From the IMG/VR virus record IMGVR_UViG_3300033148_004664: a stretch of DNA of 64,000 nucleotides; one strand, given 5' to 3'. This document shows, piece by piece, positions 12,749 through 58,589 of this stretch; position 1 is the first letter of the stretch; every line of letters begins with the position of its first letter. A model generated the notes under the pieces. The model worked only from the letters and a program-made list of their open reading frames with translations. It did no database searches and was not told the DNA's origin. Source of the stretch: an uncultured virus (IMG/VR IMGVR_UViG_3300033148_004664). Taxonomy: Duplodnaviria; Heunggongvirae; Uroviricota; Caudoviricetes. The translations under genes and the position numbers were made by a program.

Positions 12749-13456
12749 ATGCTTGAAACAAATAAAATATATTGTGGTGATTGTCTTGAATTGATGAAGG
12801 AATTACCTGATGAGAGTATAGATTTTATACTTACAGACCCGCCATTTAATGTATCATTAAAATATAATTCTTATAATGATCACATGAGTGATGAAGATTA
12901 TTCGAACTATCTACTCAAAAGGTTTGTAGAACTTTTTAGAGTTATGAAAGATGGAACGTACGGAATAATATTCACTGGAGATAAAAACCTTTATTGGGTG
13001 CACAAGGCTGTTAATGAATCTGGACTTAATTATCATCATTTTTTGAAGTGGCATAAACCTAATTGCCATAGAGCATTACCTGGAACAGTGTTGTTTGGTA
13101 CTACAGAATTAGCATTTGTGGTAAGTAAAAATAAGCCGAATATTTCAAAAATAAAACGAAAAATTATGTATAGTGACACTCTTACGTATATTAATTGTAC
13201 GCCACCAGCTTCATATGAAAAAGACAAAGTTTTTCATCCGGCAGAAAGACCTGTAGGTTTATATAATCAAATAATATTAGGTTTCACTGATGAAAATGAT
13301 GTTGTTTTGGATCCTTTTCTTAGTTCAGGTACGACTGCTGTATCTTGTATTAAAACTAATCGTAAATTTATAGGTATGGAAATAGACAAACACTACTACG
13401 AAATGGCACAAAAAAGGATAGATGCTGAGTTATCACAGTTGAAACTTGATTTGTAA
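12749..13456 (+). CDS. N6A/N4C DNA methyltransferase, beta class
   Basis: DPPF motif IV precedes DPFLSSGTT motif I (Gly replaced by Ser); ends QLKLDL. Confidence 0.9.
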   Translation: MLETNKIYCGDCLELMKELPDESIDFILTDPPFNVSLKYNSYNDHMSDEDYSNYLLKRFVELFRVMKDGTYGIIFTGDKNLYWVHKAVNESGLNYHHFLKWHKPNCHRALPGTVLFGTTELAFVVSKNKPNISKIKRKIMYSDTLTYINCTPPASYEKDKVFHPAERPVGLYNQIILGFTDENDVVLDPFLSSGTTAVSCIKTNRKFIGMEIDKHYYEMAQKRIDAELSQLKLDL

Positions 13457-13468
13457 AGGGAATTTGTC

Positions 13469-13822
13469 ATGAGTCTTTGTAGATGGAGTAGCATGAATTG
13501 GAAATGTGACTTATATTGTTATTATGATTGCTACGGAGGCATAACAATTCATGTCGCAGCCCGTAAGCATGTTGGAGATATACCTGAATTGCCGAATGTT
13601 CTTGATGTTTCGAGTGAGGAATGGCTTGAGGCATGTAGAAAACAAGCAAAAGCTCTTGAGGAATCGGAGTTGGTAGAGATTGGATTACCTGCAGACGGCG
13701 AGACCTTCCAATGTCCGGATATTGAATCTTTTCATAATAAGTTGAAAGAGCTAAAAGAAATGGGGTATAGGTTTCCTGAAGATTTATTCGAAATAGATGA
13801 AGAACCGGAAGGCGTTGAATAG
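13469..13822 (+). CDS. Hypothetical protein
   Basis: 117 aa ORF with RBS; decayed paralog at 11673. Confidence 0.7.
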   Translation: MSLCRWSSMNWKCDLYCYYDCYGGITIHVAARKHVGDIPELPNVLDVSSEEWLEACRKQAKALEESELVEIGLPADGETFQCPDIESFHNKLKELKEMGYRFPEDLFEIDEEPEGVE

Positions 13823-13897
13823 ATGGATGACATGTTACAATCTTTCGGTAAATACTCACAATTACCAAGGAAATGCAATATGTCATAGTGAGGGAAC

Positions 13898-14605
13898 ATG
13901 ACTGGTGGTAGTTTATTTAGTGGTATTGAAGGGATTGGTCTCGGCTTATTATGGTCGGGACTAATAGACAAAATAGTTTGGCAGGTGGAAATAGATGAGT
14001 ACTGTAACAAAGTTCTTGAAAGACACTTCCCCAACACAAAGCGATTCAAAGACATCCGAGATTGCGGAAAACATAATCTTGAACCAGTTGACGTTATTTT
14101 CGGAGGATTTCCTTGTCAACCTTTCAGTGTTGCCGGGAAGCGAAAAGGCGAAAAAGATGACCGTTATCTCTGGCCAGAAATGGTTCGGATTATTGAAGAA
14201 CTCAAACCTATTATCGTCATTGGTGAAAATGTTCCTGGAATCATCAAGATGGGTCTCGACGAAGCGTTATCTAATTTGGAGAGTCTTGGCTACTCCACGA
14301 CAGCGATTGGTATTCCTGCTATCGCCGTCAACGCTTGGCATGTTAGGCAAAGAATATGGATTATTGCCTACTCCGACAACAAGAGGATTAGATGGAGGAC
14401 AAAGAGCACGGGATATGATAAACCAGAATATACAACTATTCTCGATTTCAATGGATTACGACAATCCAGAGTTCGTCGAATGTCTAATGGGATTCCCCAT
14501 CGGATGGACAGACTTAGATGCGTAGGAAATGCTGTTGTCCCACAAGTAGCTCAAGTAATAGGTGAAATAATAAAAGATTGGTTGAATATTGAGAATGAAT
14601 ATTAA
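13898..14605 (+). CDS. C5-cytosine DNA methyltransferase, alpha polypeptide
   Basis: LFSGIEG (I), GFPCQ (IV), ENV (VI), HVRQRIW (VIII), GNAV (X); no motif IX in this frame. Confidence 0.9.
   Translation: MTGGSLFSGIEGIGLGLLWSGLIDKIVWQVEIDEYCNKVLERHFPNTKRFKDIRDCGKHNLEPVDVIFGGFPCQPFSVAGKRKGEKDDRYLWPEMVRIIEELKPIIVIGENVPGIIKMGLDEALSNLESLGYSTTAIGIPAIAVNAWHVRQRIWIIAYSDNKRIRWRTKSTGYDKPEYTTILDFNGLRQSRVRRMSNGIPHRMDRLRCVGNAVVPQVAQVIGEIIKDWLNIENEY
13995..14525 (+). CDS. Nested alternate-frame beta polypeptide of the C5 methyltransferase
   Basis: +1-frame ORF ending NPEFVECLMGFPIGWTD (motif IX); exact start uncertain. Confidence 0.8.
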   Translation: MSTVTKFLKDTSPTQSDSKTSEIAENIILNQLTLFSEDFLVNLSVLPGSEKAKKMTVISGQKWFGLLKNSNLLSSLVKMFLESSRWVSTKRYLIWRVLATPRQRLVFLLSPSTLGMLGKEYGLLPTPTTRGLDGGQRARDMINQNIQLFSISMDYDNPEFVECLMGFPIGWTDLDA

Positions 14606-14686
14606 TATATCAACATCAATTTTATAATTGAAATACACAAAATACATATATATATATTATGTAGTGTAAGTAATTTTATCAAGTGT

Positions 14687-14759
14687 AGATAGTAGGGGGG
14701 ATATTATTTATGAATCATTAATTTTTTAGCGGATCGATACTCTATCTCCCCTACTATTT
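14687..14759 (+). ncRNA. Candidate stem-enclosed small RNA or regulatory hairpin
   Basis: 17-bp stem (AGATAGTAGGGGGGATA / TATCTCCCCTACTATTT, two G-U) around a 39-nt loop in intergenic DNA. Confidence 0.45.
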
Positions 14760-14799
14760 CAGATGTAGAATAAATGGTTTTTTAATTATAGGGTGTGTA

Positions 14800-15009
14800 A
14801 TGAAAATATGTAAGTATTGTAAACATTGGAAAAGACGAGAAAACACTTGTTACGGATATTGTGATATTACTATCAAGATTGGGGGTAAAGTGATTTTAAA
14901 AGGCAGCATTGGGTTGACTAATGAGTATTTTCATTGTGCAAGGTTTGAACCGAGGGAGAATAGTAAACATGAACAAAGAGCAATTAGAAACAGTTTTAAA
15001 CGCATATAG
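14800..15009 (+). CDS. Small CxxCxxW Cys-rich protein
   Basis: KICKYCKHW...GYC...FHCARFEP. Confidence 0.7.
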   Translation: MKICKYCKHWKRRENTCYGYCDITIKIGGKVILKGSIGLTNEYFHCARFEPRENSKHEQRAIRNSFKRI

Positions 15010-15154
15010 GAAATTCTGTATTCAACATGATGTTATCTTGTCAACATACGGTTGTGAAGATATAAGTATTGAACCCTTGAATAAGGAGTATTCTGAACTT
15101 GATAGACATATAGCAGAAATACGGGATAACACATGGTTTAGACTTTTTAAATGA
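14969..15154 (+). CDS. Hypothetical protein
   Basis: ATG after GGGAG; fills the gap before the methyltransferase. Confidence 0.55.
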   Translation: MNKEQLETVLNAYRKFCIQHDVILSTYGCEDISIEPLNKEYSELDRHIAEIRDNTWFRLFK

Positions 15155-15169
15155 GGTATATATAACACA

Positions 15170-16255
15170 ATGGAATGTGTAGGCGGATGCGAAATTGACA
15201 AGTATGCAATTGCAGTATCGAAATATCATTACCCGAAACATAGGAATTATGGAGATGCAAGAACAATTGACCCTTCCGATTTACCAAACTTCGACTTGCT
15301 CTGTGCGGGGTTTCCTTGCCCGAGCTTCTCAATTTCAGGAAAGCGACTGGGATTCAATGACCCACGAGGTGCATTATTTTTTGAAATCAAACGGATTCTT
15401 GAGCACAAAAGACCCCGATATTTTCTACTCGAAAATGTTACAGGCTTATTTAGTTCTCAAGACGGAAAAGTGTTCACGAGAATACTTGAAATTCTCGCCG
15501 ACGCTGGGTATCGAGTTCAATGGCAGGTACTTGATAGCCAGGAGTTCGGAGTTCCACAACACCGGGAAAGAGTGTTCATTGTCGGACATATTAGAGGAGA
15601 ACCCCGACCGGAGGTATTTCCTATCGGAGAAAGCGAAACAGTCTCTCATGAAATGGGCACAAAAAGGGAAAAACGCGTCTGTAATACAATTACAAGAAAA
15701 ACCGGACACCCGCACATAACGCTATTAGCTTGGCATAATAAGACAAGCGGGGTCGTCCCGAAAGATGTCTCACCTACACTACGAGCGTCGGGCGGAACGG
15801 ACATAAGAAAAATACCGTATGTTGTACACTCCAACCCGCGTAGATATAGTAGTGATGGATTACGTCAGGTTGGATATTTTGGTAAAAACGGAATGGCGGA
15901 ACGTGTCTATGATGTTGGTGGGGTAGCAACTACACTTCGGAGTAATGGGGGCGGGTTAGGAGCGAAAACCGGATTATATGAAATTGAAGATTCAATACGC
16001 CGGCTTACGCCGCTTGAGTGCGAGCGGTTACAGGCGTTCCCCGATAACTGGACAAAGTATGGAATATTTAATGATAGGAAAGTGCAAGAAATATCAGATA
16101 CACAGCGTTATAAACTTCTCGGCAATGCTGTTACAACGACGGTTGTTTCCGAGATAATAAAACGAATGCCTGATAACATTGAAACCTACTTTGATATGTT
16201 TTACGGGATCAAGGGATTTACTTATGGGATAGAGCTTGCACAAGAGAATTTATAA
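15170..16255 (+). CDS. Circularly permuted C5-cytosine DNA methyltransferase
   Basis: Starts at motif II (GCEIDKYA); GFPC, ENV, QHRER, RRLTPLECERLQAFPD, GNAV; motif-I-like YFDMFYGIKGF at the C-terminus. Confidence 0.85.
   Translation: MECVGGCEIDKYAIAVSKYHYPKHRNYGDARTIDPSDLPNFDLLCAGFPCPSFSISGKRLGFNDPRGALFFEIKRILEHKRPRYFLLENVTGLFSSQDGKVFTRILEILADAGYRVQWQVLDSQEFGVPQHRERVFIVGHIRGEPRPEVFPIGESETVSHEMGTKREKRVCNTITRKTGHPHITLLAWHNKTSGVVPKDVSPTLRASGGTDIRKIPYVVHSNPRRYSSDGLRQVGYFGKNGMAERVYDVGGVATTLRSNGGGLGAKTGLYEIEDSIRRLTPLECERLQAFPDNWTKYGIFNDRKVQEISDTQRYKLLGNAVTTTVVSEIIKRMPDNIETYFDMFYGIKGFTYGIELAQENL
15195..15719 (+). CDS. Nested alternate-frame polypeptide within the C5 methyltransferase
   Basis: +1-frame ORF with CSLSDILEENPDRRYFLSEKA and EQLTLPI. 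Confidence 0.65.
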   Translation: MTSMQLQYRNIITRNIGIMEMQEQLTLPIYQTSTCSVRGFLARASQFQESDWDSMTHEVHYFLKSNGFLSTKDPDIFYSKMLQAYLVLKTEKCSREYLKFSPTLGIEFNGRYLIARSSEFHNTGKECSLSDILEENPDRRYFLSEKAKQSLMKWAQKGKNASVIQLQEKPDTRT

Positions 16256-16259
16256 AGAT

Positions 16260-16294: not shown

Positions 16295-16323
16295 GATGAT
16301 ATAAGTTTGGAGAAAGAAACCAC

Positions 16324-16914
16324 ATGGGGGATTTTATAATAGTTGATACTCACCCGCAATTAATATCTTATGTAGATTTGTTACAGAAGAAGAATGCAGA
16401 AGCACTTTCTTTTTATCCTAAATGTGTATTTGAGCGGGAAGCAGAAAAACATAGGATATTACTTGGATTGTTGAATAATGAACCGTGTGGTTATCTTTAC
16501 ATGGGAGCACCTGCGATTGATATGAAATGCCATCAAGTATGTATTCAATATGATGTAAGGCGTAGATTATATGGTGCTATGCTTGTTGCTAAGATGGAAG
16601 AAATTGCAAATAGATATGGAGCATCTACTATTACATTACGTTGTGGATTTGATTTAGAGGCAAATAAATTTTGGAAAGAGCTTGGTTATTCTTGTATTGA
16701 TATACAAACTGGAGGCATTAGACGCAACAGAAAGATAAATATATGGAGAAAGTATTTGAATCCAAATCTATTTGAAAATTTTGCAATTGAACCTGCGGTT
16801 GGTAAGATAGATTCTTCTATATGGAAAAAACATAAACAAGTAGGATTAATAAGTCCATATAGCAGAGGAAAGAAGTTGCGTATTTATCGTGAAATTGTAA
16901 CAGAGAAATTTTAA
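16324..16914 (+). CDS. GNAT-family acetyltransferase
   Basis: RRRLYGAML acetyl-CoA loop; EANKFWKELGY motif B. Confidence 0.8.
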   Translation: MGDFIIVDTHPQLISYVDLLQKKNAEALSFYPKCVFEREAEKHRILLGLLNNEPCGYLYMGAPAIDMKCHQVCIQYDVRRRLYGAMLVAKMEEIANRYGASTITLRCGFDLEANKFWKELGYSCIDIQTGGIRRNRKINIWRKYLNPNLFENFAIEPAVGKIDSSIWKKHKQVGLISPYSRGKKLRIYREIVTEKF

Positions 16915-18224: not shown

Positions 18225-18239
18225 TAAGGAGTAATATAA

Positions 18240-18449
18240 ATGCTGATTGTAAATAAGTATGAAATACCAGATAGCTGTCCCAAAGATTGCCCGCTGTCAT
18301 GGGTTTATTGCAAAGAGTGTCCACTTTTCGTTCGTTCGGATTTTATTTATAAGAAGATCCCGGAGAAACATCGAGAAGATTGGGCGAAAGCGTGGAGTGA
18401 ATGGTTCAAGAGCGGGTATAAAACCCCGCCTGAACTTTTTTACTTTTAA
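18240..18449 (+). CDS. Cys-rich protein (paralog of 38417)
   Basis: Shares NKYE.P..CP.DCP...REDWAK.W.EWFKSGYKT. Confidence 0.75.
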   Translation: MLIVNKYEIPDSCPKDCPLSWVYCKECPLFVRSDFIYKKIPEKHREDWAKAWSEWFKSGYKTPPELFYF

Positions 18450-19403: not shown

Positions 19404-20006
19404 ATGCTTGAAACAAATAAAATATATCACGGCGATTGTATTGACTTGATGAAGGAATTGTCTGATAAAAGTGTGGATTTTGCATTTGCTGATCCGCCTT
19501 ATGGGATAAACAAAGCACATTGGGATTTATCGTATATAAGCATTGAAAAAGAATTGTTAAGAATATCTCGCAAAGGAATAGCTGTAACTCCAGGGCAAGA
19601 AAATATAGCAAAATGTATTACTGCAATGGGGGATGAATATAAAGGGATTGTATCAGCATGGAACATAAACGGCATGACATTTAGCAAAATAGGGTTTGAG
19701 AATTGGATACCTGTTGTAATGGGTGGAAAAATTAAGCGCGGACAAAACTGCTTTCGTTTTGTTGTGAAGAATGTTAAACCTAACCATCCTTCCCCCAAAC
19801 CTCTTGAGTTCATGAAGGAATTAATATTACGTTTCACTGATGAAAATGATTTAGTTCTTGATCCTTTTCTTGGTTCAGGTACGACTGCAGTAGCTTGTAT
19901 TAAAACTAATCGTAAATTTATAGGTATAGAGATAGACAAACATTATTATGAAATAGCACAAAAAAGAATAGATGCTGAGTTATCACAGTTGAAACTTAAT
20001 TTGTAA
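19404..20006 (+). CDS. N6A/N4C DNA methyltransferase, beta class (cassette 1)
   Basis: DPPY, HPSPKP, DPFLGSGTT; ends QLKLNL. Confidence 0.92.
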   Translation: MLETNKIYHGDCIDLMKELSDKSVDFAFADPPYGINKAHWDLSYISIEKELLRISRKGIAVTPGQENIAKCITAMGDEYKGIVSAWNINGMTFSKIGFENWIPVVMGGKIKRGQNCFRFVVKNVKPNHPSPKPLEFMKELILRFTDENDLVLDPFLGSGTTAVACIKTNRKFIGIEIDKHYYEIAQKRIDAELSQLKLNL

Positions 20007-20024: not shown

Positions 20025-20747
20025 ATGCTTGAACCAAATAAGATATATCACGGCGATTGTTTTGAATTAATGAAGGAACTACCCGATGAAAGTGTGGATT
20101 TTATACTTACTGATCCGCCTTATGGTATTAGTTTCTTATCAACACGGACAAATAATTATGATAAATTGGAAAACGATGATTTAGACGATTGGTTAGAACA
20201 AATTCCTAAATGGTTAAGTGAATTTAGACGTATATTAACTCCTACAGGTGTGTGTTGTTGTTTTTTAGGTGGTGGGGGTAAAATGGCGACTACTGCTCTT
20301 TTTACTATTGAAGCAATAAAACATCTCAAGTTAATTCAAACTTTAGTTTGGAAAAAGTTTATAGGATTGGGGTGGCGATATAGACCGGCGTATGAAAATA
20401 TTATAGTGTTATCTAAATCAGAAGACAACTATAATTTTTATGATACAAGCAAAAAATGTTCTAATGTTATAGAAGGGATTAATCAAAAAATCCCAAAATC
20501 TAATCCTATAAACAACTATTATGAACACCCCACACAAAAACCAGTTGAATTAATGATTCATTTATTGAATATACATTCAAAAGAAGGTGATTTAGTTCTT
20601 GATCCTTTTCTTGGTTCAGGAACAACTGCTATAGCTTGTATTAAAACTAATCGTAAATTTATAGGTATGGAAATAAATAAACATTATTATGAAATGGCAC
20701 AAAAAAGAATAGATGCTGAATTATCACAATTGAAACTTAATTTGTAA
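20025..20747 (+). CDS. N6A/N4C DNA methyltransferase, beta class (cassette 2)
   Basis: DPPY, HPTQKP, DPFLGSGTT; ends QLKLNL. Confidence 0.92.
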   Translation: MLEPNKIYHGDCFELMKELPDESVDFILTDPPYGISFLSTRTNNYDKLENDDLDDWLEQIPKWLSEFRRILTPTGVCCCFLGGGGKMATTALFTIEAIKHLKLIQTLVWKKFIGLGWRYRPAYENIIVLSKSEDNYNFYDTSKKCSNVIEGINQKIPKSNPINNYYEHPTQKPVELMIHLLNIHSKEGDLVLDPFLGSGTTAIACIKTNRKFIGMEINKHYYEMAQKRIDAELSQLKLNL

Positions 20748-20765: not shown

Positions 20766-21407
20766 ATGCTTGAAACAAATAAGATATATCATGGTGATTG
20801 TTTTGAATTAATGAAGGAATTACCTGATAAGAGCGTGGACTTGGTACTTACTGATCCGCCTTATGGGATAAATGTGGTTAATACTACGATAGGAGGTAGT
20901 AATATAGCTAAAGCTAATAAATATAAACCGATAATAAACGATGATATTAAACTTGATCTTTCTGAATTATTCCGAATATCGAAAAATCAAATTATTTTCG
21001 GGGGAAATTATTTTAATTTGCCAATATCGAAAGGATGGATTGTATGGGATAAAAAACTTCGGAATAATTGGAATGATAATTTTTCTGATGGTGAATTGGT
21101 CTGGACATCTTTTAATAAACCTTTAAGAATATATCGCAAATTATATATGGGATGTATGCAAAGTGGAAAGAGAGAAATAAGAATTCACCCAACACAAAAG
21201 CCCATTGAATTGATCAGATGGATTATAGAAAATTATTCAAAACCAACCGATTTAGTTCTTGATCCTTTTCTTGGTTCAGGTACGACCGCTGTAGCTTGTA
21301 TTAAAACTAATCGTAAATTTATAGGTATAGAGATAGACAAACATTATTATGAAATAGCACAAAAAAGAATAGATGCTGAATTATCACAATTGAAACTTAA
21401 TTTGTAA
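20766..21407 (+). CDS. N6A/N4C DNA methyltransferase, beta class (cassette 3)
   Basis: DPPY, HPTQKP, DPFLGSGTT; ends QLKLNL. Confidence 0.92.
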   Translation: MLETNKIYHGDCFELMKELPDKSVDLVLTDPPYGINVVNTTIGGSNIAKANKYKPIINDDIKLDLSELFRISKNQIIFGGNYFNLPISKGWIVWDKKLRNNWNDNFSDGELVWTSFNKPLRIYRKLYMGCMQSGKREIRIHPTQKPIELIRWIIENYSKPTDLVLDPFLGSGTTAVACIKTNRKFIGIEIDKHYYEIAQKRIDAELSQLKLNL

Positions 21408-21431
21408 AAATTGAAATTAAGGAATCAAACT

Positions 21432-22562
21432 ATGTTTGAATTGAATAAAGTACATAATATTGATGTACTGGACGGGTTAAAACAGTTGCCCGATGAAAGT
21501 ATTGACTGTGTTGTTACAAGCCCTCCTTACTGGGGATTGAGGGATTATGGGGAAGAAACAAAGTATATATGGGGAGGGGATAAAAACTGTTCTCATGAAT
21601 GGGGAGATGAGAACATAAATTCATTGAGGTTACAAGCAGGCAATCCTGAATTTCGTCGTCCGTGGCGGGAACAAGCATCTAATGAGACGATTTCTAATGG
21701 TGCATTTTGTTCTAAATGTGGTGCATGGTATGGTAGCTTAGGTCTTGAACCGACAATGCAACTCTATATCGAACATTTGAGAATGGTGTTTGCGGAAGTC
21801 AAGCGGGTGTTGAAGAAAATAGGTACATGTTGGGTTAATATCGGGGACACGTATGCAAGTGGTGGCGGTAATGCGGCAGAACAATCATTTTTGAGAAATA
21901 AAGGAAAAGATAGGCATACACAACCAGATAGCCCGGGTAAGGCAAAACTACGAAGTAAAATGGGTAAATCTCTTTGCAATATCCCGGAACGCTTCTCAAT
22001 CATGATGACGGACGAGTTGGGATGGATCAAGCGTAATACGATTATTTGGTACAAGCGGAATGCGATGCCAGCGAGCGTAAAGGATAGGTTCACAGTGGAT
22101 TTTGAATATTTTTATTTTTTCACGAAAAGTAAAAAGTATTACTTTGAGCAGCAATTTGAGGATTACGCACCAGGATCTGAAGTAGAATATCGACGGAAGT
22201 TGAGGGCGGGGAAGAAATACAACACGAAAGCACCGTGGAAGAATAATATTCCGTTCGCGGGAAAGTATAGACCAACTAATACTAAAGGACGTAACAGGCG
22301 TTGCGTGTGGGATATCCCTACTAAACCCTTTCCAGGTGCTCATTTTGCCGTCTTTCCTCTTGAACTTGTAGAGACGCCGATACTTGCTGGTTGTCCCGAA
22401 GGCGGAATTGTACTTGATCCGTTTGCGGGTAGTGGCACAACGGTACTAAAAGCATTACAGTTGAATAGGAATGCAATTGGTTTCGAGCTTAATCCTGAGT
22501 ATTGTGATTTAAGAAAAGATGAAATAGAGGCGACGAAAGCACAATTGAAATTAAGTATTTGA
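21432..22562 (+). CDS. N4C/N6A DNA methyltransferase with insertions
   Basis: TSPPYW, HFAVFP, DPFAGSGT; Cys-containing insert; ends QLKLSI. Confidence 0.9.
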   Translation: MFELNKVHNIDVLDGLKQLPDESIDCVVTSPPYWGLRDYGEETKYIWGGDKNCSHEWGDENINSLRLQAGNPEFRRPWREQASNETISNGAFCSKCGAWYGSLGLEPTMQLYIEHLRMVFAEVKRVLKKIGTCWVNIGDTYASGGGNAAEQSFLRNKGKDRHTQPDSPGKAKLRSKMGKSLCNIPERFSIMMTDELGWIKRNTIIWYKRNAMPASVKDRFTVDFEYFYFFTKSKKYYFEQQFEDYAPGSEVEYRRKLRAGKKYNTKAPWKNNIPFAGKYRPTNTKGRNRRCVWDIPTKPFPGAHFAVFPLELVETPILAGCPEGGIVLDPFAGSGTTVLKALQLNRNAIGFELNPEYCDLRKDEIEATKAQLKLSI

Positions 22563-27187: not shown

Positions 27188-27418
27188 TTGAAAATGATTC
27201 TCTGTGAAGTTATTGGAAAGGTACTTACAAATGGCGGAGTAATGCATATTTATAAGGAACTTCCATATTATTTCAAAACAAGAAGGGATTTCAAAAGGTT
27301 CATGAAAGCGAATCCAGATGAATTCGACCCAGATTCTTTCTATATTTTGTTGAGCAAACAACCATTTATCAGATTTAAAAAAGAATCGAATGGGCGGGTT
27401 ATAATCTATGAAGAATAA
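27188..27418 (+). CDS. Hypothetical protein
   Basis: ORF overlapping its neighbours in the operon. Confidence 0.55.
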   Translation: MKMILCEVIGKVLTNGGVMHIYKELPYYFKTRRDFKRFMKANPDEFDPDSFYILLSKQPFIRFKKESNGRVIIYEE

Positions 27419-27824
27419 AAGGAGGATAATTGTGAATAATGAATTAAAAATTAGACTGTTAAAAGACAATGAAATAGTCGGATATTTATATATTGTAAAT
27501 GGAAAAGTTTATAGTGCTTCTCTTGATAAACCTGATGGTTACAAAGATTGGAACACGAATCCAATAGATTTTGACGCATTTGAACGGGGAGCATTACTGG
27601 GTGAGACATGGGTATTTGAAGGAGATATTATTAAAGATCCAGTAGGCGGAACGTCAAGGGAATTCCAAGTACAAAAAACGTCCGGCGGTTCTTTGTATAT
27701 AACTTATTCATCAAGAGACGCAGAAATAACAACTGTTTATCCAGTTTATCTGGATCCCGAATTCTTTACTGTTACACTACCAATAACTGTTATTAGTAAT
27801 GTTCACGAAAGAAGGGAGAATTAA
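27408..27824 (+). CDS. YopX-like protein
   Basis: WVFEGDII...VISNVHE; family of four. Confidence 0.7.
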   Translation: MKNKRRIIVNNELKIRLLKDNEIVGYLYIVNGKVYSASLDKPDGYKDWNTNPIDFDAFERGALLGETWVFEGDIIKDPVGGTSREFQVQKTSGGSLYITYSSRDAEITTVYPVYLDPEFFTVTLPITVISNVHERREN

Positions 27825-34399: not shown

Positions 34400-34640
34400 T
34401 AGTTATGAAAACCATGAATATTACAGTTTGTGATAAATGCGGTAAAATATGTAAATTAGTCCCACATCATAAGTGGATAATCCAAGTTGAAAAACGAGAG
34501 TGTGAAGCTCATATTATGGTGACTGATTGTTGTCATAGTCTTGATTATACAGAGTATTTACTATCCTCAATAGGTAACACAGTAAATATACAACAAATAA
34601 AATTGGAAAGTTCTTGAAAGGACATGAGGGATTAAAGAAA

Positions 34641-35021
34641 ATGGCACAGACTGAATTGCGATTAAGGTTACTCAAGAATGGAAGAATTGTGGGGTATGAA
34701 ATGAAGAAACAAGGTGTGACATTGTTTGCCGATGATAGGCGACCCCACAGTTTTATTGACCACGATTCATTTGAAATCGGGATCAAAATACATGACAAGT
34801 GGGTGTTTGAGGGAGATATAATAGAGAGACCCTATCCTAATGAAGATTGCTTACCTTATCGGTTTGAAATAAAACGAAACGAATCCGGCGCATTGTACTA
34901 TGTAGCCCCTAATGCCGCAAAGGGGGATACCCTTGGTACGCATTGGGAATATTTGAGTGAACGTATGCCGGAGTTTAAGGTAATCGGCAATATTCATGAA
35001 CGGGAGACGGAAAATGAATGA
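34641..35021 (+). CDS. YopX-like protein
   Basis: LRLLKNGRIVGYE...WVFEGDII...VIGNIHE. Confidence 0.75.
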   Translation: MAQTELRLRLLKNGRIVGYEMKKQGVTLFADDRRPHSFIDHDSFEIGIKIHDKWVFEGDIIERPYPNEDCLPYRFEIKRNESGALYYVAPNAAKGDTLGTHWEYLSERMPEFKVIGNIHERETENE

Positions 35022-35418
35022 ACCAGAACTAAAACCATGCCCGTTTTGCGGAAGCGGTGATATTAAAAGTGCCGCTGGTTGGTTTGACGATTATACCGTG
35101 AAATGGGGGGCTTGGTGTGAAAATTGCGGTGTGTGCGTATTTTTTTACGGAGATACCGAGGATTACTATACAGACGAAAAAATTATCAAAGATATGTGGA
35201 ACAAAAGAATTGTTAATAATGATGGTGGTGACGGCGAATTAAAACATTGCCCATTCTGCGGAGGGGATGCAATTCTTAGAAAGACTCGTGATAGTCATGA
35301 ATGGTGGGTCTTTTGTTTGTATTGTAATGCTTTTACAATACCTCGGTATCGTCTTAAAATGGATGCAATCAAGAGATGGAACACAAGAGTGGAGGTTAGT
35401 GCTGATGGAGAAAATTAA
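35014..35418 (+). CDS. Lar-family (restriction alleviation-like) double-domain protein
   Basis: Two ELKxCPFCG...CxxC...WNxR units. Confidence 0.75.
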   Translation: MNEPELKPCPFCGSGDIKSAAGWFDDYTVKWGAWCENCGVCVFFYGDTEDYYTDEKIIKDMWNKRIVNNDGGDGELKHCPFCGGDAILRKTRDSHEWWVFCLYCNAFTIPRYRLKMDAIKRWNTRVEVSADGEN

Positions 35419-35901: not shown

Positions 35902-36192
35902 ATGAAAAATCTTATCGGCAAGACAGCGACAAGTGAGTGGAGAACAATAGAAACCATACCTAAAGATGGGAGATCGATATTAGTTAGATTCGCTGGCGGG
36001 TCCTGCTATGTATGCTATTGGGATTCGTGGCCAGTCGGTGGTGAGAATCCACAAGTATATGGAGGGCAAACTGTGGTTCAAGGAAGTCCGCCTGATGAAT
36101 ACGACTCTGGATGGGTTATTGATGGAACAATAAGCGTCATATACGAAGAACCGATCGCTTGGGCTGAAATCAACACAGGAGGAGTAAAATGA
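35902..36192 (+). CDS. DUF551-like protein
   Basis: EWRTIETIPKDGRSILV...AWAEIN. Confidence 0.65.
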   Translation: MKNLIGKTATSEWRTIETIPKDGRSILVRFAGGSCYVCYWDSWPVGGENPQVYGGQTVVQGSPPDEYDSGWVIDGTISVIYEEPIAWAEINTGGVK

Positions 36193-36635
36193 ACGCGAAA
36201 AAACTGCTTGGAAAGCAATCTGCGGGTGAATGGAAGCCGTTTGACAATTCAGCTAAAACTGGAAGGAGAGTACTAATATTGTTCGAAGACGGGTATGTGG
36301 ATGTTTTTGAATGGGATAAAGACCGTGAAGTATGGTGGGATACTCGTGATCAAGAAAATTATGAGTGCGATATGGTTGATGCTATAGCTTACGCTGAACT
36401 AAATGCGACTATTGCTATCGGGAAGAAACCAGCTGAAAATTGGAGATCAATTGAAACTATTCCTAAAACTGATGATCAAATTTTAGTTCTAATCGAAGAC
36501 CCAGAAAAGGAGGCCTACTGTACCATAGTGTCTTGGGATGAAAGTGCTGACGCATGGAGAACACCGGAAGGATATTTATACGACTCGGATATAATTATTA
36601 AACATGGAGTAGCTTGGGCGAGATTACGTTTTTGA
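36189..36635 (+). CDS. Double DUF551-like protein
   Basis: Two GKxxAxxW...AxAxL units. Confidence 0.65.
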   Translation: MNAKKLLGKQSAGEWKPFDNSAKTGRRVLILFEDGYVDVFEWDKDREVWWDTRDQENYECDMVDAIAYAELNATIAIGKKPAENWRSIETIPKTDDQILVLIEDPEKEAYCTIVSWDESADAWRTPEGYLYDSDIIIKHGVAWARLRF

Positions 36636-37737: not shown

Positions 37738-38433
37738 ATGATGAAACAGAATGAGTTGATGTTGAGATTGATTCGTAACAACACAATAGTTGGATACGAA
37801 TGGCATGTAAAAGGAGAAGTTTTTTATTCTAATACTAATGATATGAAATGGAGTAATTGTAAAATTGAGCATGATACCTTTGAGTTTGGGATAAAGCACG
37901 GTATTAATTGGTTTTTTGAAGGAGACAAAGTTAAGGTCTCCAACAACTATATGATACAACCAATTAATGGGGTAATAAAACATGAGATGGATTGTGGATT
38001 TTATGTTGAATGTACTATTAAACGAGATGACCCACCAATAGGAATTGAAATACGAAAAATATCCTGGGACAAATTCTTGTTTGATAGTAAAACATGGTCA
38101 CTTGAATTAATTGGAAATATTCATGGGCAAACAGTTGATCCATTCATTTCTACAGGACCGTTACCAGAGCGTTTTTGGGTAGCCTATGAGGATGATGGAG
38201 GGATAGGATGCGGTACGCCAGAAAATCACATCCGTTCTTGTTTATATTACACTGACGACTATAATACATTGCGGGCGTTTATTGATGCCGTAGAAAAGCG
38301 TAAAGTAGGCCGGCTTCGTCCTCGGATCCTTCGAGTTTATACACAATACTTTGATTTTCATGAAAATGGAGATGTGTTCGAATTACATCCACCAACAGAA
38401 AAGGAGAAAAATAATAATGTTGATAGCGAATAA
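37738..38433 (+). CDS. YopX-like protein with a C-terminal extension
   Basis: WFFEGDKV...ELIGNIH plus an extra domain. Confidence 0.7.
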   Translation: MMKQNELMLRLIRNNTIVGYEWHVKGEVFYSNTNDMKWSNCKIEHDTFEFGIKHGINWFFEGDKVKVSNNYMIQPINGVIKHEMDCGFYVECTIKRDDPPIGIEIRKISWDKFLFDSKTWSLELIGNIHGQTVDPFISTGPLPERFWVAYEDDGGIGCGTPENHIRSCLYYTDDYNTLRAFIDAVEKRKVGRLRPRILRVYTQYFDFHENGDVFELHPPTEKEKNNNVDSE

Positions 38434-38662
38434 ATACGAATTTCCTGATAAGTGCCCTAATGATTGCCCGCATAAAGGAGAAGCTCTTATGCAAGGCGGT
38501 TATTGCCACCGCTGTCCGATATTTAATTGCCGGCCGTTTATTGGACCCGACGGAGATGAGATTAGCCTCTTAAGGCCGGAGGATTACCGAGAAGATTGGG
38601 CGAAAGTGTGGTATGAATGGTTCAAAAGCGGATACAAAACGAAATTAGAATTGTATCTTTAA
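38417..38662 (+). CDS. Cys-rich protein (paralog of 18240)
   Basis: REDWAKVWYEWFKSGYKT. Confidence 0.75.
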   Translation: MLIANKYEFPDKCPNDCPHKGEALMQGGYCHRCPIFNCRPFIGPDGDEISLLRPEDYREDWAKVWYEWFKSGYKTKLELYL

Positions 38663-39991: not shown

Positions 39992-40082
39992 TACCAGTCT
40001 GTTTGGCAGTCATGTTGATTAAATTATGAGAAAATTTAAAAAGAGATAATTGAAACAAAAACACAAAATAGGGAGGTATAAA

Positions 40083-40442
40083 ATGCAATTGGGACTCAGA
40101 TTCATTAAAGACGGCAAAATCGTAGGCTACACTATGTATAAAGATAATCGTCGTCAAGTAACGGGGGAAACGGAAAACTTCGACTCCTTTGAAATAGGGT
40201 TCAATGTGTTCGGGAAGTGGTACTTTAAAGGAGACCTTGTCGAAATCGTCAAAGACAATAAACGCTACGAATGTATTGTAGAGGGCGACATCTATGGGAA
40301 TCTGTATATTTGCCCCAAAATGAAGTCGCTTTCAGATATTAACAAAGAAGTATTCACGATTCCAGTAGCTGGATATAAGGAATTTCAAACCTACGCACCG
40401 AGATTTCTTGGGAACATTCATGAAGGGAGAACTGAAAAATGA
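40083..40442 (+). CDS. YopX-like protein
   Basis: LRFIKDGKIVGY...DSFEIG...GNIHE. Confidence 0.7.
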   Translation: MQLGLRFIKDGKIVGYTMYKDNRRQVTGETENFDSFEIGFNVFGKWYFKGDLVEIVKDNKRYECIVEGDIYGNLYICPKMKSLSDINKEVFTIPVAGYKEFQTYAPRFLGNIHEGRTEK

Positions 40443-40732
40443 ATCGTAATATCATAAACATTCATGCCGCAAGTAAATGGAAATTAGTTGAGGACGAACA
40501 GCCTAATAAGGATTGTGAATATATTTTAATTCTGTTTAAGGAACATGTTCGTTCTTCTGACAAGCAAAATGACTACACACTCAATGTCGCTCTTGTCAGT
40601 TGGAGTTGCCTTATTTCTTATTCGGGGGAGCGTGGCTTTGAAGGTACTTGGGGGTGGTGCGATAAGCATAGACATAAATATAACGAAAAAGACATTGTAG
40701 CATGGGCTGAAGTAAATTTCATCAGAGATTAA
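40439..40732 (+). CDS. DUF551-like protein
   Basis: KWKLVEDEQP...ILI...AWAEVN. Confidence 0.6.
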   Translation: MNRNIINIHAASKWKLVEDEQPNKDCEYILILFKEHVRSSDKQNDYTLNVALVSWSCLISYSGERGFEGTWGWCDKHRHKYNEKDIVAWAEVNFIRD

Positions 40733-41751: not shown

Positions 41752-42606
41752 ATGGAAATAAAGCATGATTTATATTTAGGAGATTGTGAAGAAATATTAA
41801 AAACGCTGCCGGATAATTCGGTAGATTTGATTTTTACTTCTCCGCCGTATGCTGACCAAAGAAAGAAAACTTATGGGGGAATCCATCCAGATGATTATGT
41901 TGATTGGTTTTTGCCTAAAGCCGAGCAAATGTTGAGAGTGTTAAAGCCTACTGGCACTTTTGTATTAAACATAAAGGAGAAAGTCGTAAATGGCGAGCGT
42001 AGCACTTATGTTATAGAACTTATTATAGAAATGAGAAAGCAAGGTTGGCTTTGGACTGAGGAATTTATATGGCATAAGAAAAATTGTTACCCTGGTAAAT
42101 GGCCTAACAGATTTAGAGATGCTTGGGAAAGATTGTTACAATTTAATAAGCAGAAAAAATTTAATATGTATCAAGAGGAAGTAATGGTTCCAATGGGGGA
42201 TTGGGCAAAAAGCAGATTAAAGAAGTTAAGTGAAACGGATAAGAAAAGGGATGAATCAAAAGTAGGTAGTGGATTTGGAAAAAACATATCAAACTGGCTT
42301 AATCGTGAAATGGCATATCCCACTAATGTTCTTCATTTGGCAACGGAATGCAGTAACAAAAAACATAGTGCTGTATTTCCTGAGAAATTGCCAGAATGGT
42401 TTATAAAGTTATTCACGCAGGTTGGTGATACAGTATTAGATCCATTTATGGGTTCAGGAACAACAAACATTGTGGCCAATAGAATGCACAGGAATTCTAT
42501 TGGTATTGAGTTGGTTCCAGAATATTACGAGATGGCTAAAGCACAGATACCACCCATGGAATTGTACCTTTTAAATTCAAACAATAAAAATAAGGAGGAG
42601 CAATGA
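41752..42606 (+). CDS. N4C/N6A DNA methyltransferase, beta class
   Basis: TSPPY, HSAVFP, DPFMGSGTT. Confidence 0.92.
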   Translation: MEIKHDLYLGDCEEILKTLPDNSVDLIFTSPPYADQRKKTYGGIHPDDYVDWFLPKAEQMLRVLKPTGTFVLNIKEKVVNGERSTYVIELIIEMRKQGWLWTEEFIWHKKNCYPGKWPNRFRDAWERLLQFNKQKKFNMYQEEVMVPMGDWAKSRLKKLSETDKKRDESKVGSGFGKNISNWLNREMAYPTNVLHLATECSNKKHSAVFPEKLPEWFIKLFTQVGDTVLDPFMGSGTTNIVANRMHRNSIGIELVPEYYEMAKAQIPPMELYLLNSNNKNKEEQ

Positions 42607-43070
42607 TACTTTTTCTTACTCTGTTAATTGCGTTATTTTCTTTCTTTTGTGGGTTTTTCTTCGGATTTATAGTCGCAGCTAAATATACTATACCAGCGAC
42701 TAAAAATTACTATAATGAGTCTCAAGTTTGTCCGATGAAACAACCAGGTGCATTAATTACATTGAATGATTATCAACAATACGCTTTGCGTACTGCAAGT
42801 CCGAAAACGGATTGGTTGACATGTGTTCTTGGATTGAACGGCGAATCGGGCGAAATTGCTGATATTGTGAAGAAGAGTAGAGCACAAGGACACAATGTAT
42901 CAAATACTGATTACGTTAAAGAACTCGGTGATGTTCTTTGGTATGTCGCCGTAGGAGCTAAAAGTTTAGGATATTCTCTTGGAGAGATCGCAGAGAAAAA
43001 TGTGGAAAAATTAAAAAAGAGGTATCCGAATGGATTTGAAGAAAAGCTGAGTAAATTTCGTAATGAATAA
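42603..43070 (+). CDS. MazG-like NTP pyrophosphohydrolase with an N-terminal TM helix
   Basis: GLNGESGEIAD..KK...KELGDVLWY...N.EKLKKRYP. Confidence 0.85.
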   Translation: MILFLTLLIALFSFFCGFFFGFIVAAKYTIPATKNYYNESQVCPMKQPGALITLNDYQQYALRTASPKTDWLTCVLGLNGESGEIADIVKKSRAQGHNVSNTDYVKELGDVLWYVAVGAKSLGYSLGEIAEKNVEKLKKRYPNGFEEKLSKFRNE

Positions 43071-54431: not shown

Positions 54432-54433
54432 AA

Positions 54434-55054: not shown

Positions 55055-55462
55055 ATGAATTACTTTAATTTTGAAAATCCAGATGATATAGTTTCGGAGT
55101 ACAGTAACAACCAGGAATGGTTCGTTGGTAGATGTATTGAATCTTTCGATATTGAAGGTGTTGTCTGTCAATTCGAATCTTTTATTAATGAAGAGGAAGA
55201 AACGGATGAAGTTATTGTGGATGTAATCGGTTCGATTGAAGATGCATTACGTTTAATTGGCTATAGTGATGATGATATTGATGATGATCTCTATACTTAC
55301 ACGATGGTTGATTTCTTCGAGGAATGTGCGTGGGATTACTACAGAATTGTATCGGATGAATTAAATAAGTTGTTACAGGAAGATTTTGATATTACGAATG
55401 TTTATTTTGAATTCGGTTGGAACGAAGACGAATGGGTGTTATACTTAAAAAGATATAATTGA
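55055..55462 (+). CDS. Highly acidic small protein
   Basis: About 37 D/E versus 6 K/R in 135 aa (hand count). Confidence 0.7.
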   Translation: MNYFNFENPDDIVSEYSNNQEWFVGRCIESFDIEGVVCQFESFINEEEETDEVIVDVIGSIEDALRLIGYSDDDIDDDLYTYTMVDFFEECAWDYYRIVSDELNKLLQEDFDITNVYFEFGWNEDEWVLYLKRYN

Positions 55463-55474
55463 GGTGTTATATAA

Positions 55475-56014
55475 ATGGCTTACACATCGGCGGAACAAGA
55501 ATTAATAGACAGAGTCAGACAACAGATGAGTATGCAATATTCATCCTTATCTTCTTCTGACTATATACAAGCACAGAAATTTACGGATGAAGAAATTTAT
55601 TGGTTTTTACAGAGTGCTCTCGGGGATTTTAATTTATGGGCTCCCCGTCCTTCCAATTATACTATAGATACTTTAATATCGGAAAATTCCGGGTATAGTC
55701 AAGTATTGATTATGGGAGCTTGTATCTATGGATTGATTGCATTGGAATTTTACGAGGCCGGGATGCACTTTAATGTAAGTGATGATGGACATTCCATTAC
55801 AAGAGACAGACAGCCTAAATACGCCAACATTTTATCACAGTTATGGCAAGTTTACGCCGATATGTTAGGTAGAACAAAATTAATGTGGGCGATGTCGAAT
55901 ATGAGAATTCATGCGTTATTTACTCCCCTTGCTTCCGTTCCTTATGCCTCTTATAAAGGCACAAGGACTGTTCATGGAGGATTATGGGGGTATGGAAGAA
56001 GAAACATGCGTTAA
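55475..56014 (+). CDS. Head-tail adaptor/neck protein
   Basis: LIDRVR...FTDEEI..FL pattern; position. Confidence 0.6.
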   Translation: MAYTSAEQELIDRVRQQMSMQYSSLSSSDYIQAQKFTDEEIYWFLQSALGDFNLWAPRPSNYTIDTLISENSGYSQVLIMGACIYGLIALEFYEAGMHFNVSDDGHSITRDRQPKYANILSQLWQVYADMLGRTKLMWAMSNMRIHALFTPLASVPYASYKGTRTVHGGLWGYGRRNMR

Positions 56015-56034
56015 ATAGAAAGGAGTATAAAAGA

Positions 56035-56673
56035 ATGCCTGTACACACGGGAAAAGATTCAAAGGGATGTTATGCTCGTTGGGGCGAACATGGTAAGAAG
56101 TATTATTACAAATGTAAAGATAAAGAGAGTAGAGAACGAGCAGAAAATAGAGCACTACAGCAAGGACGAGCTATAAAGAGTCAAGGAACTACAACTTTAT
56201 CTTTGAAACGTAGAGCACAGATGCCGGGCGGTGAGTTCTTAGGCGGATTACCTCAAGATCCTGCGGCGGTGGAAAAGGAAATAATGAGTTATTTATATTA
56301 CAAGAAAGATGTACCGCCGGCGACTATAAAAAACATGATAGATACTTGGAGAGAGCGGGGTATTATGCCAAGCTCGTTTAATCCCGCTGTTATTGATAAT
56401 TTGACGGAAAAATATTTCGACGAAAAATTTTCACAGGAGAATTTAGAGCGTGATCTTGAGAGTATTGATTTGTTGGATTCTTACAAGAGTGAAGAAATAA
56501 GAGACCGTATGGATACTTTACTTGAGGAATATCGTGCTACAACGGATCCCGTAAGGAAAAGAGAATTGGAACAAGAATTGACGAGAATGCGACGGTTATT
56601 AATTCACGGAAAAAGACGAACGACAAGGAAAAAACGCGGACGATTTGACCCGTTCAAACCTTTCGTCAAGTAA
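56035..56673 (+). CDS. Phage protein with an internal LSLKRRAQ motif
   Basis: MPVH...ARWGEHGKKYYY N-domain plus a second helical domain. Confidence 0.65.
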   Translation: MPVHTGKDSKGCYARWGEHGKKYYYKCKDKESRERAENRALQQGRAIKSQGTTTLSLKRRAQMPGGEFLGGLPQDPAAVEKEIMSYLYYKKDVPPATIKNMIDTWRERGIMPSSFNPAVIDNLTEKYFDEKFSQENLERDLESIDLLDSYKSEEIRDRMDTLLEEYRATTDPVRKRELEQELTRMRRLLIHGKRRTTRKKRGRFDPFKPFVK

Positions 56674-56697
56674 TATTTTCATGTAAAGGGGGGTATC

Positions 56698-57423
56698 ATG
56701 ATTAATAAAATAATATCTATTATCATTATTGGTTTAATTATTGTAGCTGTAGCGTTAAATATACAGTTACGAAAACAACAAGAAAAATATAATGATCTTG
56801 TTGTAGAATTGGAATCGGAACGAAACAAAAAACCGAAGGAGATAGTTATACACGATACCAAGGTAGAATATGTATATAAAGATGGGAAAACTGTTGTAGT
56901 GGAGCGTGTACCGGAAGGTTATGTAAAATTTGATTTGGAAAAATACGAGAAGGCGATACAAGAACGAGAACAAGTACAAGCAAAAATAGACAGTCTCTCG
57001 CAGGAAAAAACAACGACAATTACGGCCATGCATAGATTACTACAACAGAAACAGTATGATAAAGCGTTATTGAATGAATATGAAACCAGAATAAAACTAT
57101 TAAATAATGATATAAGATCGTTAAAAAGAAAAATTAACATTCCTTCTAATGTTGTATCAATACAAAAACGCGGTTGGATTTTCCGAGTTCAAACCGGCAT
57201 AGGATGGAATGGTTCATTAGACGGGTATGTAGGAGTAAAATATGCGTTTTGGAATAAGTATGGTCTTACAGTAGGTACGACTTCCAAACAGATCGGACTT
57301 GGCATTACTCGAAAAATTGATTTCCTTCCAAGTATAAAGAATGTAGATTTATTATTAATGGGTGGCAAAAGTTATAAAGACTCTTACGGAACGGTATTTG
57401 TTGGGTTGGTTACAACACTTTAA
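56698..57423 (+). CDS. Membrane-anchored coiled-coil protein (possible spanin-like)
   Basis: N-terminal TM, coiled coil, amphipathic beta-strand C-terminus. Confidence 0.5.
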   Translation: MINKIISIIIIGLIIVAVALNIQLRKQQEKYNDLVVELESERNKKPKEIVIHDTKVEYVYKDGKTVVVERVPEGYVKFDLEKYEKAIQEREQVQAKIDSLSQEKTTTITAMHRLLQQKQYDKALLNEYETRIKLLNNDIRSLKRKINIPSNVVSIQKRGWIFRVQTGIGWNGSLDGYVGVKYAFWNKYGLTVGTTSKQIGLGITRKIDFLPSIKNVDLLLMGGKSYKDSYGTVFVGLVTTL

Positions 57424-57437
57424 AAAGGATTATTCCA

Positions 57438-57662
57438 ATGACATTATTTTCTACAAGTATTATACTGCACTTGGAAGGGTTTCTGCGGATATATCATTCT
57501 GGAGGAAACCTGACTCCAGATGATATTACGTTTTTGGAACATTTAGGTATATTCTTTGCAAAAACTTGCGGGATTGATGAATCAATGATCGCACATGCAA
57601 TTCTATTATTGAGTCGAATGAATGAGGGAGAGAACTCAAATGAAGCGTTGGTTCTTAATTAG
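57438..57662 (+). CDS. Hypothetical protein
   Basis: ORF with an AGGA RBS. Confidence 0.45.
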   Translation: MTLFSTSIILHLEGFLRIYHSGGNLTPDDITFLEHLGIFFAKTCGIDESMIAHAILLLSRMNEGENSNEALVLN

Positions 57663-57749
57663 TATGGGAATCGGGATATTTTTAATGATTGCAGTATGGA
57701 TAAGGAATAAATTAATTAATGACATAGCAGATGATTTGATTTTATTTAT

Positions 57750-58589
57750 TTAAGCGAATAAGTCGAGTTGATCTATCTGTTGTTTCATTCTATGTTCTGC
57801 TATTTTTATGTATTCGTATTCTATTTCATATCCAATAAAATGACGATGAAGTTTAGACGCTACTAAACATGTTGTACCGCTTCCCGCAAAAGGATCCAAT
57901 ACAATATCATCTTTGAAAGTGTAAAGTTGTATCAACCTAAACGGCAGTTCTTCCGGAAATGGGGCAGGATGCCCGATTTTCCGTGCAGAAACCGTAGGAA
58001 ATGTCCAAATACTCTTTGTCCATTCTAAAAAATCTTCTTTCAGAATAGTGCTCTGTTTTCCTTCAGAAGAACGTTCAAATGAACCTTTAGAAAAAACAAG
58101 TATGTATTCATGTACATCCCGCAATACAGGATTAGAAGCGGATAACCAGCTTCCCCATGCAGTGGAGGAACCGACACTTGAACCTTTATTCCAAATTATT
58201 TCCCCTCTCATGGAAAATCCTATATTCAACATATCTTCTATAACATATCTATGTAGAGGAATATATGGTTTTCTACCTATATTTGCGATATTGATACAAA
58301 TACGCCCTCCATTCGTTAAAACTCTGTAACATTCTTTCCATGCATTTCGCAGAAATTGTCTATATTCAACGAGCGTCATGTTTTTATCATAATCTTTCAT
58401 AACATTATAAGGAGGCGATGTGACAACAAGATGAATACTATTATTAGGTAATTCTTCCATGTTTTCACACGATTTACAGAAAATGCGATCCAGATATTCA
58501 GATGGAACTTGATTTTCTGATTCAGAAACATCGATTTCAGTCATTACGCCGTTATACATATTACTTTCATAAATGCTCTTGTTTTTCAT
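57750..58589 (-). CDS. N4C/N6A DNA methyltransferase, beta class
   Basis: TSPPY, HPAPFP, DPFAGSGTT; ends QLDLFA; the only well-supported minus-strand gene. Confidence 0.92.
   Translation of the reverse strand: MKNKSIYESNMYNGVMTEIDVSESENQVPSEYLDRIFCKSCENMEELPNNSIHLVVTSPPYNVMKDYDKNMTLVEYRQFLRNAWKECYRVLTNGGRICINIANIGRKPYIPLHRYVIEDMLNIGFSMRGEIIWNKGSSVGSSTAWGSWLSASNPVLRDVHEYILVFSKGSFERSSEGKQSTILKEDFLEWTKSIWTFPTVSARKIGHPAPFPEELPFRLIQLYTFKDDIVLDPFAGSGTTCLVASKLHRHFIGYEIEYEYIKIAEHRMKQQIDQLDLFA

Follow-up and report, generated by a model that had tools for sequence, protein, structure and literature searches.

Known partners of the bacterial beta sliding clamp (DnaN), among them Pol II, Pol IV, Pol III alpha, Hda and MutS/MutL, share a small set of peptide forms, as described in the available parts of PMC11139829 and PMC9690074. 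The published binding motif reads Q-phi-x-[L/M]-[F/L] or Q-phi-x-[L/M]-x-[F/L], and Ile is accepted as the final residue too (PMC11139829, available part). The window analysed here, a stretch of 64,000 nucleotides from an uncultured virus (IMG/VR record IMGVR_UViG_3300033148_004664), encodes seven DNA methyltransferases of the PF01555 family, and six of them end in peptides of these same forms. As in Pol II and Pol IV, the peptides are located at the extreme C-terminus; unlike in the known clients, the carriers are DNA methyltransferases, and the binding is predicted only. We propose, with moderate confidence, that the tails QLxLx[L/I] and QLDLF act as short linear motifs through which the methyltransferases dock onto the beta clamp. 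This proposal rests on the sequence pattern, comparative enrichment and one structural model, which together suggest that the phage probably methylates its own DNA as it is copied.

Methyltransferases tethered to a replication clamp are known from eukaryotes. The maintenance methyltransferase DNMT1 possesses a PCNA-binding motif and methylates new DNA soon after its synthesis (PMC9690074, available part). The arrangement proposed here is similar in that a short motif would tether a methyltransferase to a replication clamp, but the clamp is beta and not PCNA, the motif is not a PCNA-interacting-protein (PIP) box, and the enzymes are PF01555 N6/N4 and not C5 methyltransferases. In addition, DNMT1 serves epigenetic maintenance, whereas the presumed purpose here is restriction escape, and the two share no common descent. 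Among phage proteins, the transcription activator MuC of phage Mu contains a clamp-binding motif, and its binding to the host clamp has been tested experimentally (bioRxiv 10.1101/2025.01.04.631326, available part). MuC is a precedent for the use of the host clamp, by way of a like motif, by a phage protein with no replication function; in our case the proteins are methyltransferases and their binding is predicted.

In the available part of PMC11139829 no methyltransferase is named among the beta-clamp partners, and the words "methyltransferase" and "methylase" have no occurrence. The available part of PMC9690074 mentions a methyltransferase only as Dnmt1 and names none among the beta-clamp partners. 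In the full-text literature, which leaves most subscription journals outside, no paper was found that connects the beta clamp with a DNA methyltransferase of bacteria or phages.

Clamp-like tails of the PF01555 methyltransferases

According to Pfam, the window contains nine DNA methyltransferase genes, seven of PF01555 (beta-class N6/N4) and two of the C5 family PF00145. The seven PF01555 open reading frames (ORFs) score 98.9-177 bits against a Pfam cut-off of 26.7, and their alignment exhibits the family hallmarks in the order (D/S)PPY, then FxGSGTT. Four of them, all on the plus strand, constitute group A: 12749-13456 (E = 3.9e-39), which ends in ...AELSQLKLDL with QLKLDL at 13436-13453, and 19404-20006 (E = 5.4e-28), 20025-20747 (E = 5.1e-43) and 20766-21407 (E = 3.2e-29), which all end in ...AELSQLKLNL with QLKLNL at 19986-20003, 20727-20744 and 21387-21404, respectively. 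The second lineage is represented by the plus-strand enzyme at 21411-22562 (E = 6e-48), which starts at TTG 21411 or ATG 21432, possesses a large middle insert, is 29% identical to group A and ends in ...ATKAQLKLSI (QLKLSI at 22542-22559). The third lineage is encoded on the minus strand at 57750-58655 (E = 7.1e-52) and ends in ...QQIDQLDLFA, with QLDLF-A at 57753-57770. The exception among the seven is the plus-strand enzyme at 41752-42606, also assigned to PF01555 by Pfam, with the end ...LLNSNNKNKEEQ (also given as ...MELYLLNSNNKNKEEQ).

The alignment locates the six tails at the extreme C-terminus, just beyond the last helix, which comes after FxGSGTT. An earlier note on this DNA had listed QLKLDL, QLKLNL (three times), QLKLSI and QLDLFA as C-termini, and the ORF translations contain all of these on six of the seven PF01555 enzymes. 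The tails it described are real, but the numbers it attached to them are those of the ORF starts, and the motifs themselves lie at the positions given above. Its further statement that these tails match the clamp-binding motif is borne out, since all six fit the published forms, whereas the 41752 enzyme and the main frames of both C5 genes do not. The 41752 enzyme had been described as lacking a clear match, and the strict motif is indeed absent there.

Within the window, the clamp-like tail is specific to methyltransferases. A six-frame scan with QL.L.[LIFM] yielded 14 matches, and the five that directly abut a stop codon all belong to methyltransferases. When the last 16 residues were searched with a looser tail pattern, 6 of the 112 non-nested plus-strand ORFs of at least 60 residues matched, namely five PF01555 enzymes and ORF 2303-3697. 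With the minus-strand enzyme added, the pattern is present in 6/7 PF01555 ORFs versus 1/106 other ORFs (Fisher p = 1.9e-8, four of the six being paralogs). A further string, QLKLFL at 36448, was dropped, its frame being different from that of ORF 36189-36635.

The structure-prediction check suggested in the earlier note lends support to binding but stops short of showing it. Residues 206-240 of the 20025 enzyme were modelled in complex with DnaN from E. coli, a stand-in for the clamp of the host, and compared with three controls. The QLKLNL tail is placed in the canonical E. coli clamp pocket with a score of 0.75, versus 0.00 for the best control. In the calibration of the docking tool this score was reached by 116/157 solved complexes and 2/215 mismatched pairs, counts that hold only roughly here because our own alignment was supplied. 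At least 97% of contacts are shared between the runs, and the predicted local distance difference test score (pLDDT) of the partner is at least 66. The predicted partner contacts are formed by residues 231 and 233-240, that is, by the tail itself, with Q235 at subsite II. The clamp contributes residues 152, 172, 174-177, 242, 246-247, 278, 320, 344, 346, 360 and 362-366 in the model, and these contacts include 11 of the 12 subsite I and seven of the eight subsite II residues listed in the available part of PMC11139829.

This predicted binding position also bears on the reading that the tail associates with some other partner, such as a phage protein or a protease adaptor, or represents a C-terminal degradation or quality-control tag governing the level or timing of the enzymes. 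One tail on six enzymes would permit their joint control, and hydrophobic C-termini can act as protease signals. However, the modelled tail sits in the canonical clamp pocket and places Q235 at subsite II, a general hydrophobic tag would not need to resemble both clamp-motif forms so closely, down to the leading Gln, and no candidate partner has been identified. We regard another partner or a tag as the least probable of the alternatives to clamp docking considered in this work.

Descent of the tails and their occurrence in relatives

The earlier note explained the tails by convergence of unrelated methyltransferases. In that form the claim fails: all seven enzymes are PF01555 members, the tail occupies homologous columns after the last helix, and four of the enzymes are recent duplicates. 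Group A has approximately 30 N-terminal and 55 C-terminal residues in common, flanking middle parts that differ, and the DNA identity is 91% at the 3' ends and 83% at the 5' ends. Judged from these patterns, the four genes are recent duplicates with swapped recognition regions. Their tail codons show one Asp/Asn change and otherwise synonymous changes only. The 21411 enzyme uses codons unlike those of group A for a near-identical tail peptide, and the rest of its C-terminal region has diverged. Because four of the six tails come from near-identical paralogs, the independent count is three tailed lineages out of four, with one lineage lacking the tail.

Relatives of each lineage already carry such tails, including chromosomal bacterial genes and some genes of archaeal metagenome-assembled genomes (MAGs), again at odds with convergence in the phage; the tail is thus inherited, and phages are not its only carriers. 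Convergence is retained in a weaker form, in that the strict motif is found on all six tailed enzymes of this phage and on only a minority of their listed relatives. The strict canonical form is kept on three of the phage's four PF01555 lineages.

For the 57750 family, the best 120 of 8000 scored relatives (63-100% identity) mostly end in NQLxLF-like or [ST]PxLF sequences, and the family shares the consensus ...RIxxxxxQLxLFxx, in which the spacer ahead of the motif is variable. Many relatives of the 21411 enzyme end in SQSKLF, QQLF, RQLKLF or similar. Family alignments show conservation at Q, L, L and F but not at the five preceding residues. For the 20025 enzyme, the query was truncated ahead of the tail, so that the tail could not influence the ranking, and compared with 1.84 billion representatives; 111 of the best 150 listed were usable, with the methyltransferase domain at the C-terminus. 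Either Q..[LIM][FL] or the hexamer is present in 32/111 tails, exactly C-terminal in 17 of the 32, compared with 5.4 +/- 2.1 for shuffled tails (maximum 13 in 1000) and 0.4 for internal segments. The strict motif occurs in 38/120 tails of the 57750 family (shuffled mean 1.6, mid-protein control 0/120), in 10/120 of the 21411 family (shuffled mean 1.5, mid-protein control 0/120) and in 9/111 of the 20025 representatives (shuffled mean 1.9, mid-protein control 0/150), corresponding to 8-32% of the listed relatives of the three lineages. Some relatives have the motif behind long proline-rich linkers of 15-25 residues, an arrangement typical of tethered motifs, and many close relatives have none.

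A named-genome sample of 80 loci from species-representative genomes comprises 73 bacterial loci and 7 from MAGs labelled archaeal. The bacterial loci include 22 with the pentamer, 15 with the hexamer (for example QIRLPI, found in many Poribacteria), 11 with [SAT]PxLF, five with another LF ending and 20 with none, four of the last being Qx-R-L-[PS]-[IV]. Between orthologs that are 61-68% identical, the pentamer (QLxLF) and the hexamer (QIRLPI and others) interchange at one spot, which favours the clamp reading. Taken from these sequences, the tail is a widespread optional add-on of PF01555 enzymes, and against the bacterial-genome and cultured-phage backgrounds the phage stands out by having the strict motif on each of its three tailed lineages.

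Several observations weigh against docking on the clamp. The motif is absent from one PF01555 enzyme and from both C5 alpha frames, and four of the six tails belong to one duplication family. A polymerase, a clamp loader or another replisome gene was not found within the window among 57 ORFs compared with PHROGs and 23 compared with Pfam; a phage-encoded clamp gene, proposed in the earlier note as something to look for, was likewise not found among the same ORFs. The tail is neither phage-specific nor bacteria-specific: the seven loci from archaeal-labelled MAGs comprise three with [SA]PKLFD[YF], two with QxKLF and two with none. The idea that the tail type tracks the domain of life, beta clamp versus PCNA, was rejected, as there is no clean separation and [SAT]PxLF is also present in 11 bacterial loci. 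In two methyltransferase-rich bacterial genomes, 2/10 short-tailed PF01555 genes match (40 regions examined). Of eight cultured-phage enzymes, chosen as a spread of tblastn matches, two have clear tails (RRQQTLF in Tenacibaculum phage JQ and QPDLF... in Acinetobacter phage MD-2021a), two partial ones and four none. Moreover, the docking result may arise because the model has memorised solved clamp-peptide complexes; many of these exist, so the pass demonstrates likeness to known clients and not binding. AlphaFold2, supplied with a 50-row alignment, modelled the 57750 enzyme at a mean pLDDT of 70 and drew its tail not as a disordered stretch but as the end of a helix comprising residues 258-278, with pLDDT of approximately 75.

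The two bacterial MAG genomes mentioned above contain 39 and 29 PF01555 matches, respectively, an unusually large methyltransferase load.

The helical drawing of the 57750 tail would suit a tail that forms an intramolecular or dimer contact, as an amphipathic extension of the last helix that stabilises the folded enzyme, its dimer or an autoinhibited state, its likeness to clamp peptides being coincidental; the drawing is compatible with a free tail but does not demonstrate one. That M.RsrI, M.MboIIA, CcrM and similar beta-class enzymes are active as dimers counts for this explanation. So does the tail in the archaeal-labelled MAG homologs, since archaea, to our knowledge, have no beta clamp. 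On the other hand, the solved relatives M1.HpyAVI (5hfj, 232 residues, aligned to 230) and 9c3u (249 residues, aligned to 246) end 2-3 residues past the last helix, so the tail is not part of the core fold, which dispenses with it. The 15-25-residue linkers before the tail in some relatives, the interchange of the two clamp forms at the same position and the many close relatives without a tail argue in the same direction. An intramolecular or dimer role of this kind appears improbable to us.

The membership of four of the six tails in one paralog family, with 3' DNA 91% identical, together with the frequency of similar tails in relatives of all three lineages, is what would be expected if the tail were phylogenetic baggage that came with the genes and has no function in this phage, its count being inflated by tandem duplication. 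However, all three lineages retain the strict motif, which only 8-32% of the listed relatives possess, the paralog tail codons vary only by the one Asp/Asn change and synonymous changes, and the 21411 enzyme obtains nearly the same peptide by different codons. The conservation of Q, L, L and F beside five variable residues also disagrees with functionless inheritance. We consider baggage unlikely, marginally more so than an intramolecular contact, and retain clamp docking as the preferred explanation of the tails.

Nested frames within the two C5 genes

M.EcoHK31I is a C5 methyltransferase composed of two polypeptides, with beta encoded in another frame of alpha (PMC2836561 and PMC3404938, available parts), and the N-terminal 42 residues of beta are needed for its association with alpha (PMC2836561, available part). 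Similarly, both C5 genes of the window enclose a long +1-frame ORF. Unlike in M.EcoHK31I, the overlap is nearly complete, and the present two-subunit assemblies are putative.

The first gene, a small C5 cytosine methyltransferase with an alpha-like frame, is located at 13898-14605 on the plus strand and matches PF00145 (E = 2.6e-41) and, over the whole ORF, phrog_363 (E = 4.6e-64). Its frame contains the motifs before and after the recognition part, and its own C-terminus has no clamp motif. The nested ORF, at 13995-14525 on the same strand, encodes a beta-like subunit of 176 residues that matches phrog_1008 (E = 3.1e-26) and contains QLTLF at 14085-14099. An apparent motif IX is found in the nested frame, and the catalytic motifs and the last motif in the main frame. 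The second C5 methyltransferase, at 15170-16255 on the plus strand, matches PF00145 at profile positions 23-322 (E = 6.9e-66), and its C-terminus likewise has no clamp motif. The first S-adenosylmethionine-binding motif is missing from it, with no FxGxG upstream in any frame, and by this sequence the enzyme may be truncated, inactive or reliant on another protein. Its nested +1-frame ORF, at 15195-15719 on the plus strand (174 residues), matches phrog_16143 (E = 8.4e-15) and contains QLTLPI at 15264-15281.

The beta-like nested subunits of both C5 enzymes thus carry a like motif near the N-terminus. The earlier note had placed QLTLF and QLTLPI in these ORFs; the strings are present as described, but not at the C-terminus. 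Among the window ORFs of at least 100 residues, the two nested frames are the longest same-strand ORFs wholly inside another gene. The families phrog_1008 and phrog_16143 are both named DNA methyltransferase, and the main frames remain solid C5 enzymes. That the nested motifs are chance strings was rejected on the basis of the PHROG matches, the homologs and the conservation of both frames.

The 13995 nested protein has 270 homologs (E <= 1e-5). Of the 120 listed, 104 have Q-h-x-h-F among their first 60 residues; in 101 of these the sequence is QLTLF, usually at residue 8. Paenibacillus phage Lily possesses the same layout, annotated as "g62 internal gene", and Lactobacillus phage Lc-Nu has it unannotated. 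Over the same nucleotides in three phages, identity is 48-53% in the nested frame and 56-59% in the main frame; beyond the catalytic motifs the order is reversed, with 44-54% in the nested frame and 27-39% in the main frame. In the main frame, 103/149 synonymous sites are conserved within the overlap versus 25/64 upstream (p = 6e-5), and at the QLTLF site the main frame varies (PVDVIF, TIDLIS, SIDIVS) over a constant nested peptide. By tblastn, 97 phage records match the 15195 nested ORF, and its frame is open in Lactococcus phage CHPC148, with QLSLF, and in the archaeal Methanobacterium virus Drs3, with no such motif.

By these comparisons, the nested ORFs are members of large conserved families and resemble beta subunits of the M.EcoHK31I type, with signs of selection in both frames. 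An AlphaFold2 model of the 13995 nested protein has a mean pLDDT of 61, falling below 50 at residues 32-42, and QLTLF lies in a predicted disordered stretch. The available parts of PMC2836561 and PMC3404938 contain no description of a QLTLF start of the nested family for M.EcoHK31I. Judged from its sequence context, the nested QLTLF may serve subunit contact, clamp binding or both. Association with alpha, comparable to that of the N-terminal 42 residues of M.EcoHK31I beta (PMC2836561, available part), would fit the reading in which such peptides bind a partner other than the clamp.

Genomic context and replication-coupled methylation

From its ORFs, the window looks like a section of a large tailed phage. 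Almost every ORF is on the plus strand, and the GC fraction of the window is 0.32-0.41. The genes include those for a major head protein, a tail sheath, a head protease and an endolysin. The matches of the major head protein are all distant, the best being that of Bacillus phage G (41% identity), plus one weak viral contig; the structural genes have no match to phages by megablast. A protein identical to the 21411 enzyme is recorded from a contig of 135,734 bases.

A block of eight large ORFs (109-10043) has no PHROG match and includes two ankyrin-repeat proteins, 7036-8505 and 8595-9533 (Pfam Ank_2, E = 1.2e-09 and 4.5e-13), with a weak ankyrin match also in 1-891. Directly upstream of the methyltransferase cluster, 11110-12737 contains a nucleoside 2-deoxyribosyltransferase-like gene and a radical S-adenosylmethionine gene (phrog_9298, E = 1.7e-88), and a GNAT acetyltransferase-like ORF (16324-16914) is located within the cluster. 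Together, these three genes may point to further modification of DNA or nucleotides. A Lar-like restriction-alleviation protein is encoded at 34996-35418, and a MazG-like pyrophosphatase at 42603-43070 adjoins the motif-less methyltransferase 41752; both are further anti-restriction or nucleotide-pool functions. In addition, small ORFs form paralog sets with matching C-termini. One set comprises 27408-27824, 34614-35021 and 40050-40442 (...NVHERREN, ...NIHERETENE and ...NIHEGRTEK), a pair is formed by 35902-36192 and 40439-40732 (...AWAEIN... and ...AWAEVN...), and another pair by 18240-18449 and 38351-38662 (...KSGYKTPPELFYF and ...KSGYKTKLELYL).

If the tails dock onto the clamp, the clamp used would be that of the host or one encoded by the phage outside the window. 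Since clamps stay behind on freshly synthesised DNA, an enzyme bound to one would encounter unmethylated phage DNA at the fork or immediately behind it. New phage DNA could then be methylated before host restriction enzymes cut it, and the system would represent a bacterial counterpart of DNMT1 on PCNA. The binding itself, the clamp involved and any effect on methylation timing or restriction escape are what we infer from the combined evidence.

A broader possibility, which we put forward tentatively, is that fork-coupled methylation is common in bacteria and phages. Many PF01555 enzymes and nested C5 beta subunits would then be true clamp clients, and the three PF01555 lineages and two C5 beta subunits of this phage would be tuned to one strict motif, so that every new duplex is modified on the clamp before restriction, as an unnoticed prokaryotic counterpart of DNMT1-PCNA.

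If clamp docking is correct, DNA methyltransferases would join polymerases and repair proteins as clients of the bacterial clamp, and their docking would explain how phage or host DNA is methylated fast enough after replication to escape restriction. The tail would provide a simple sequence mark for finding clamp-bound methyltransferases, and a handle for experiments through tail deletion, clamp-pocket inhibitors and peptide competition. The coupling of methylation to a replication clamp would then have arisen in bacteria and their viruses as well as in eukaryotes.

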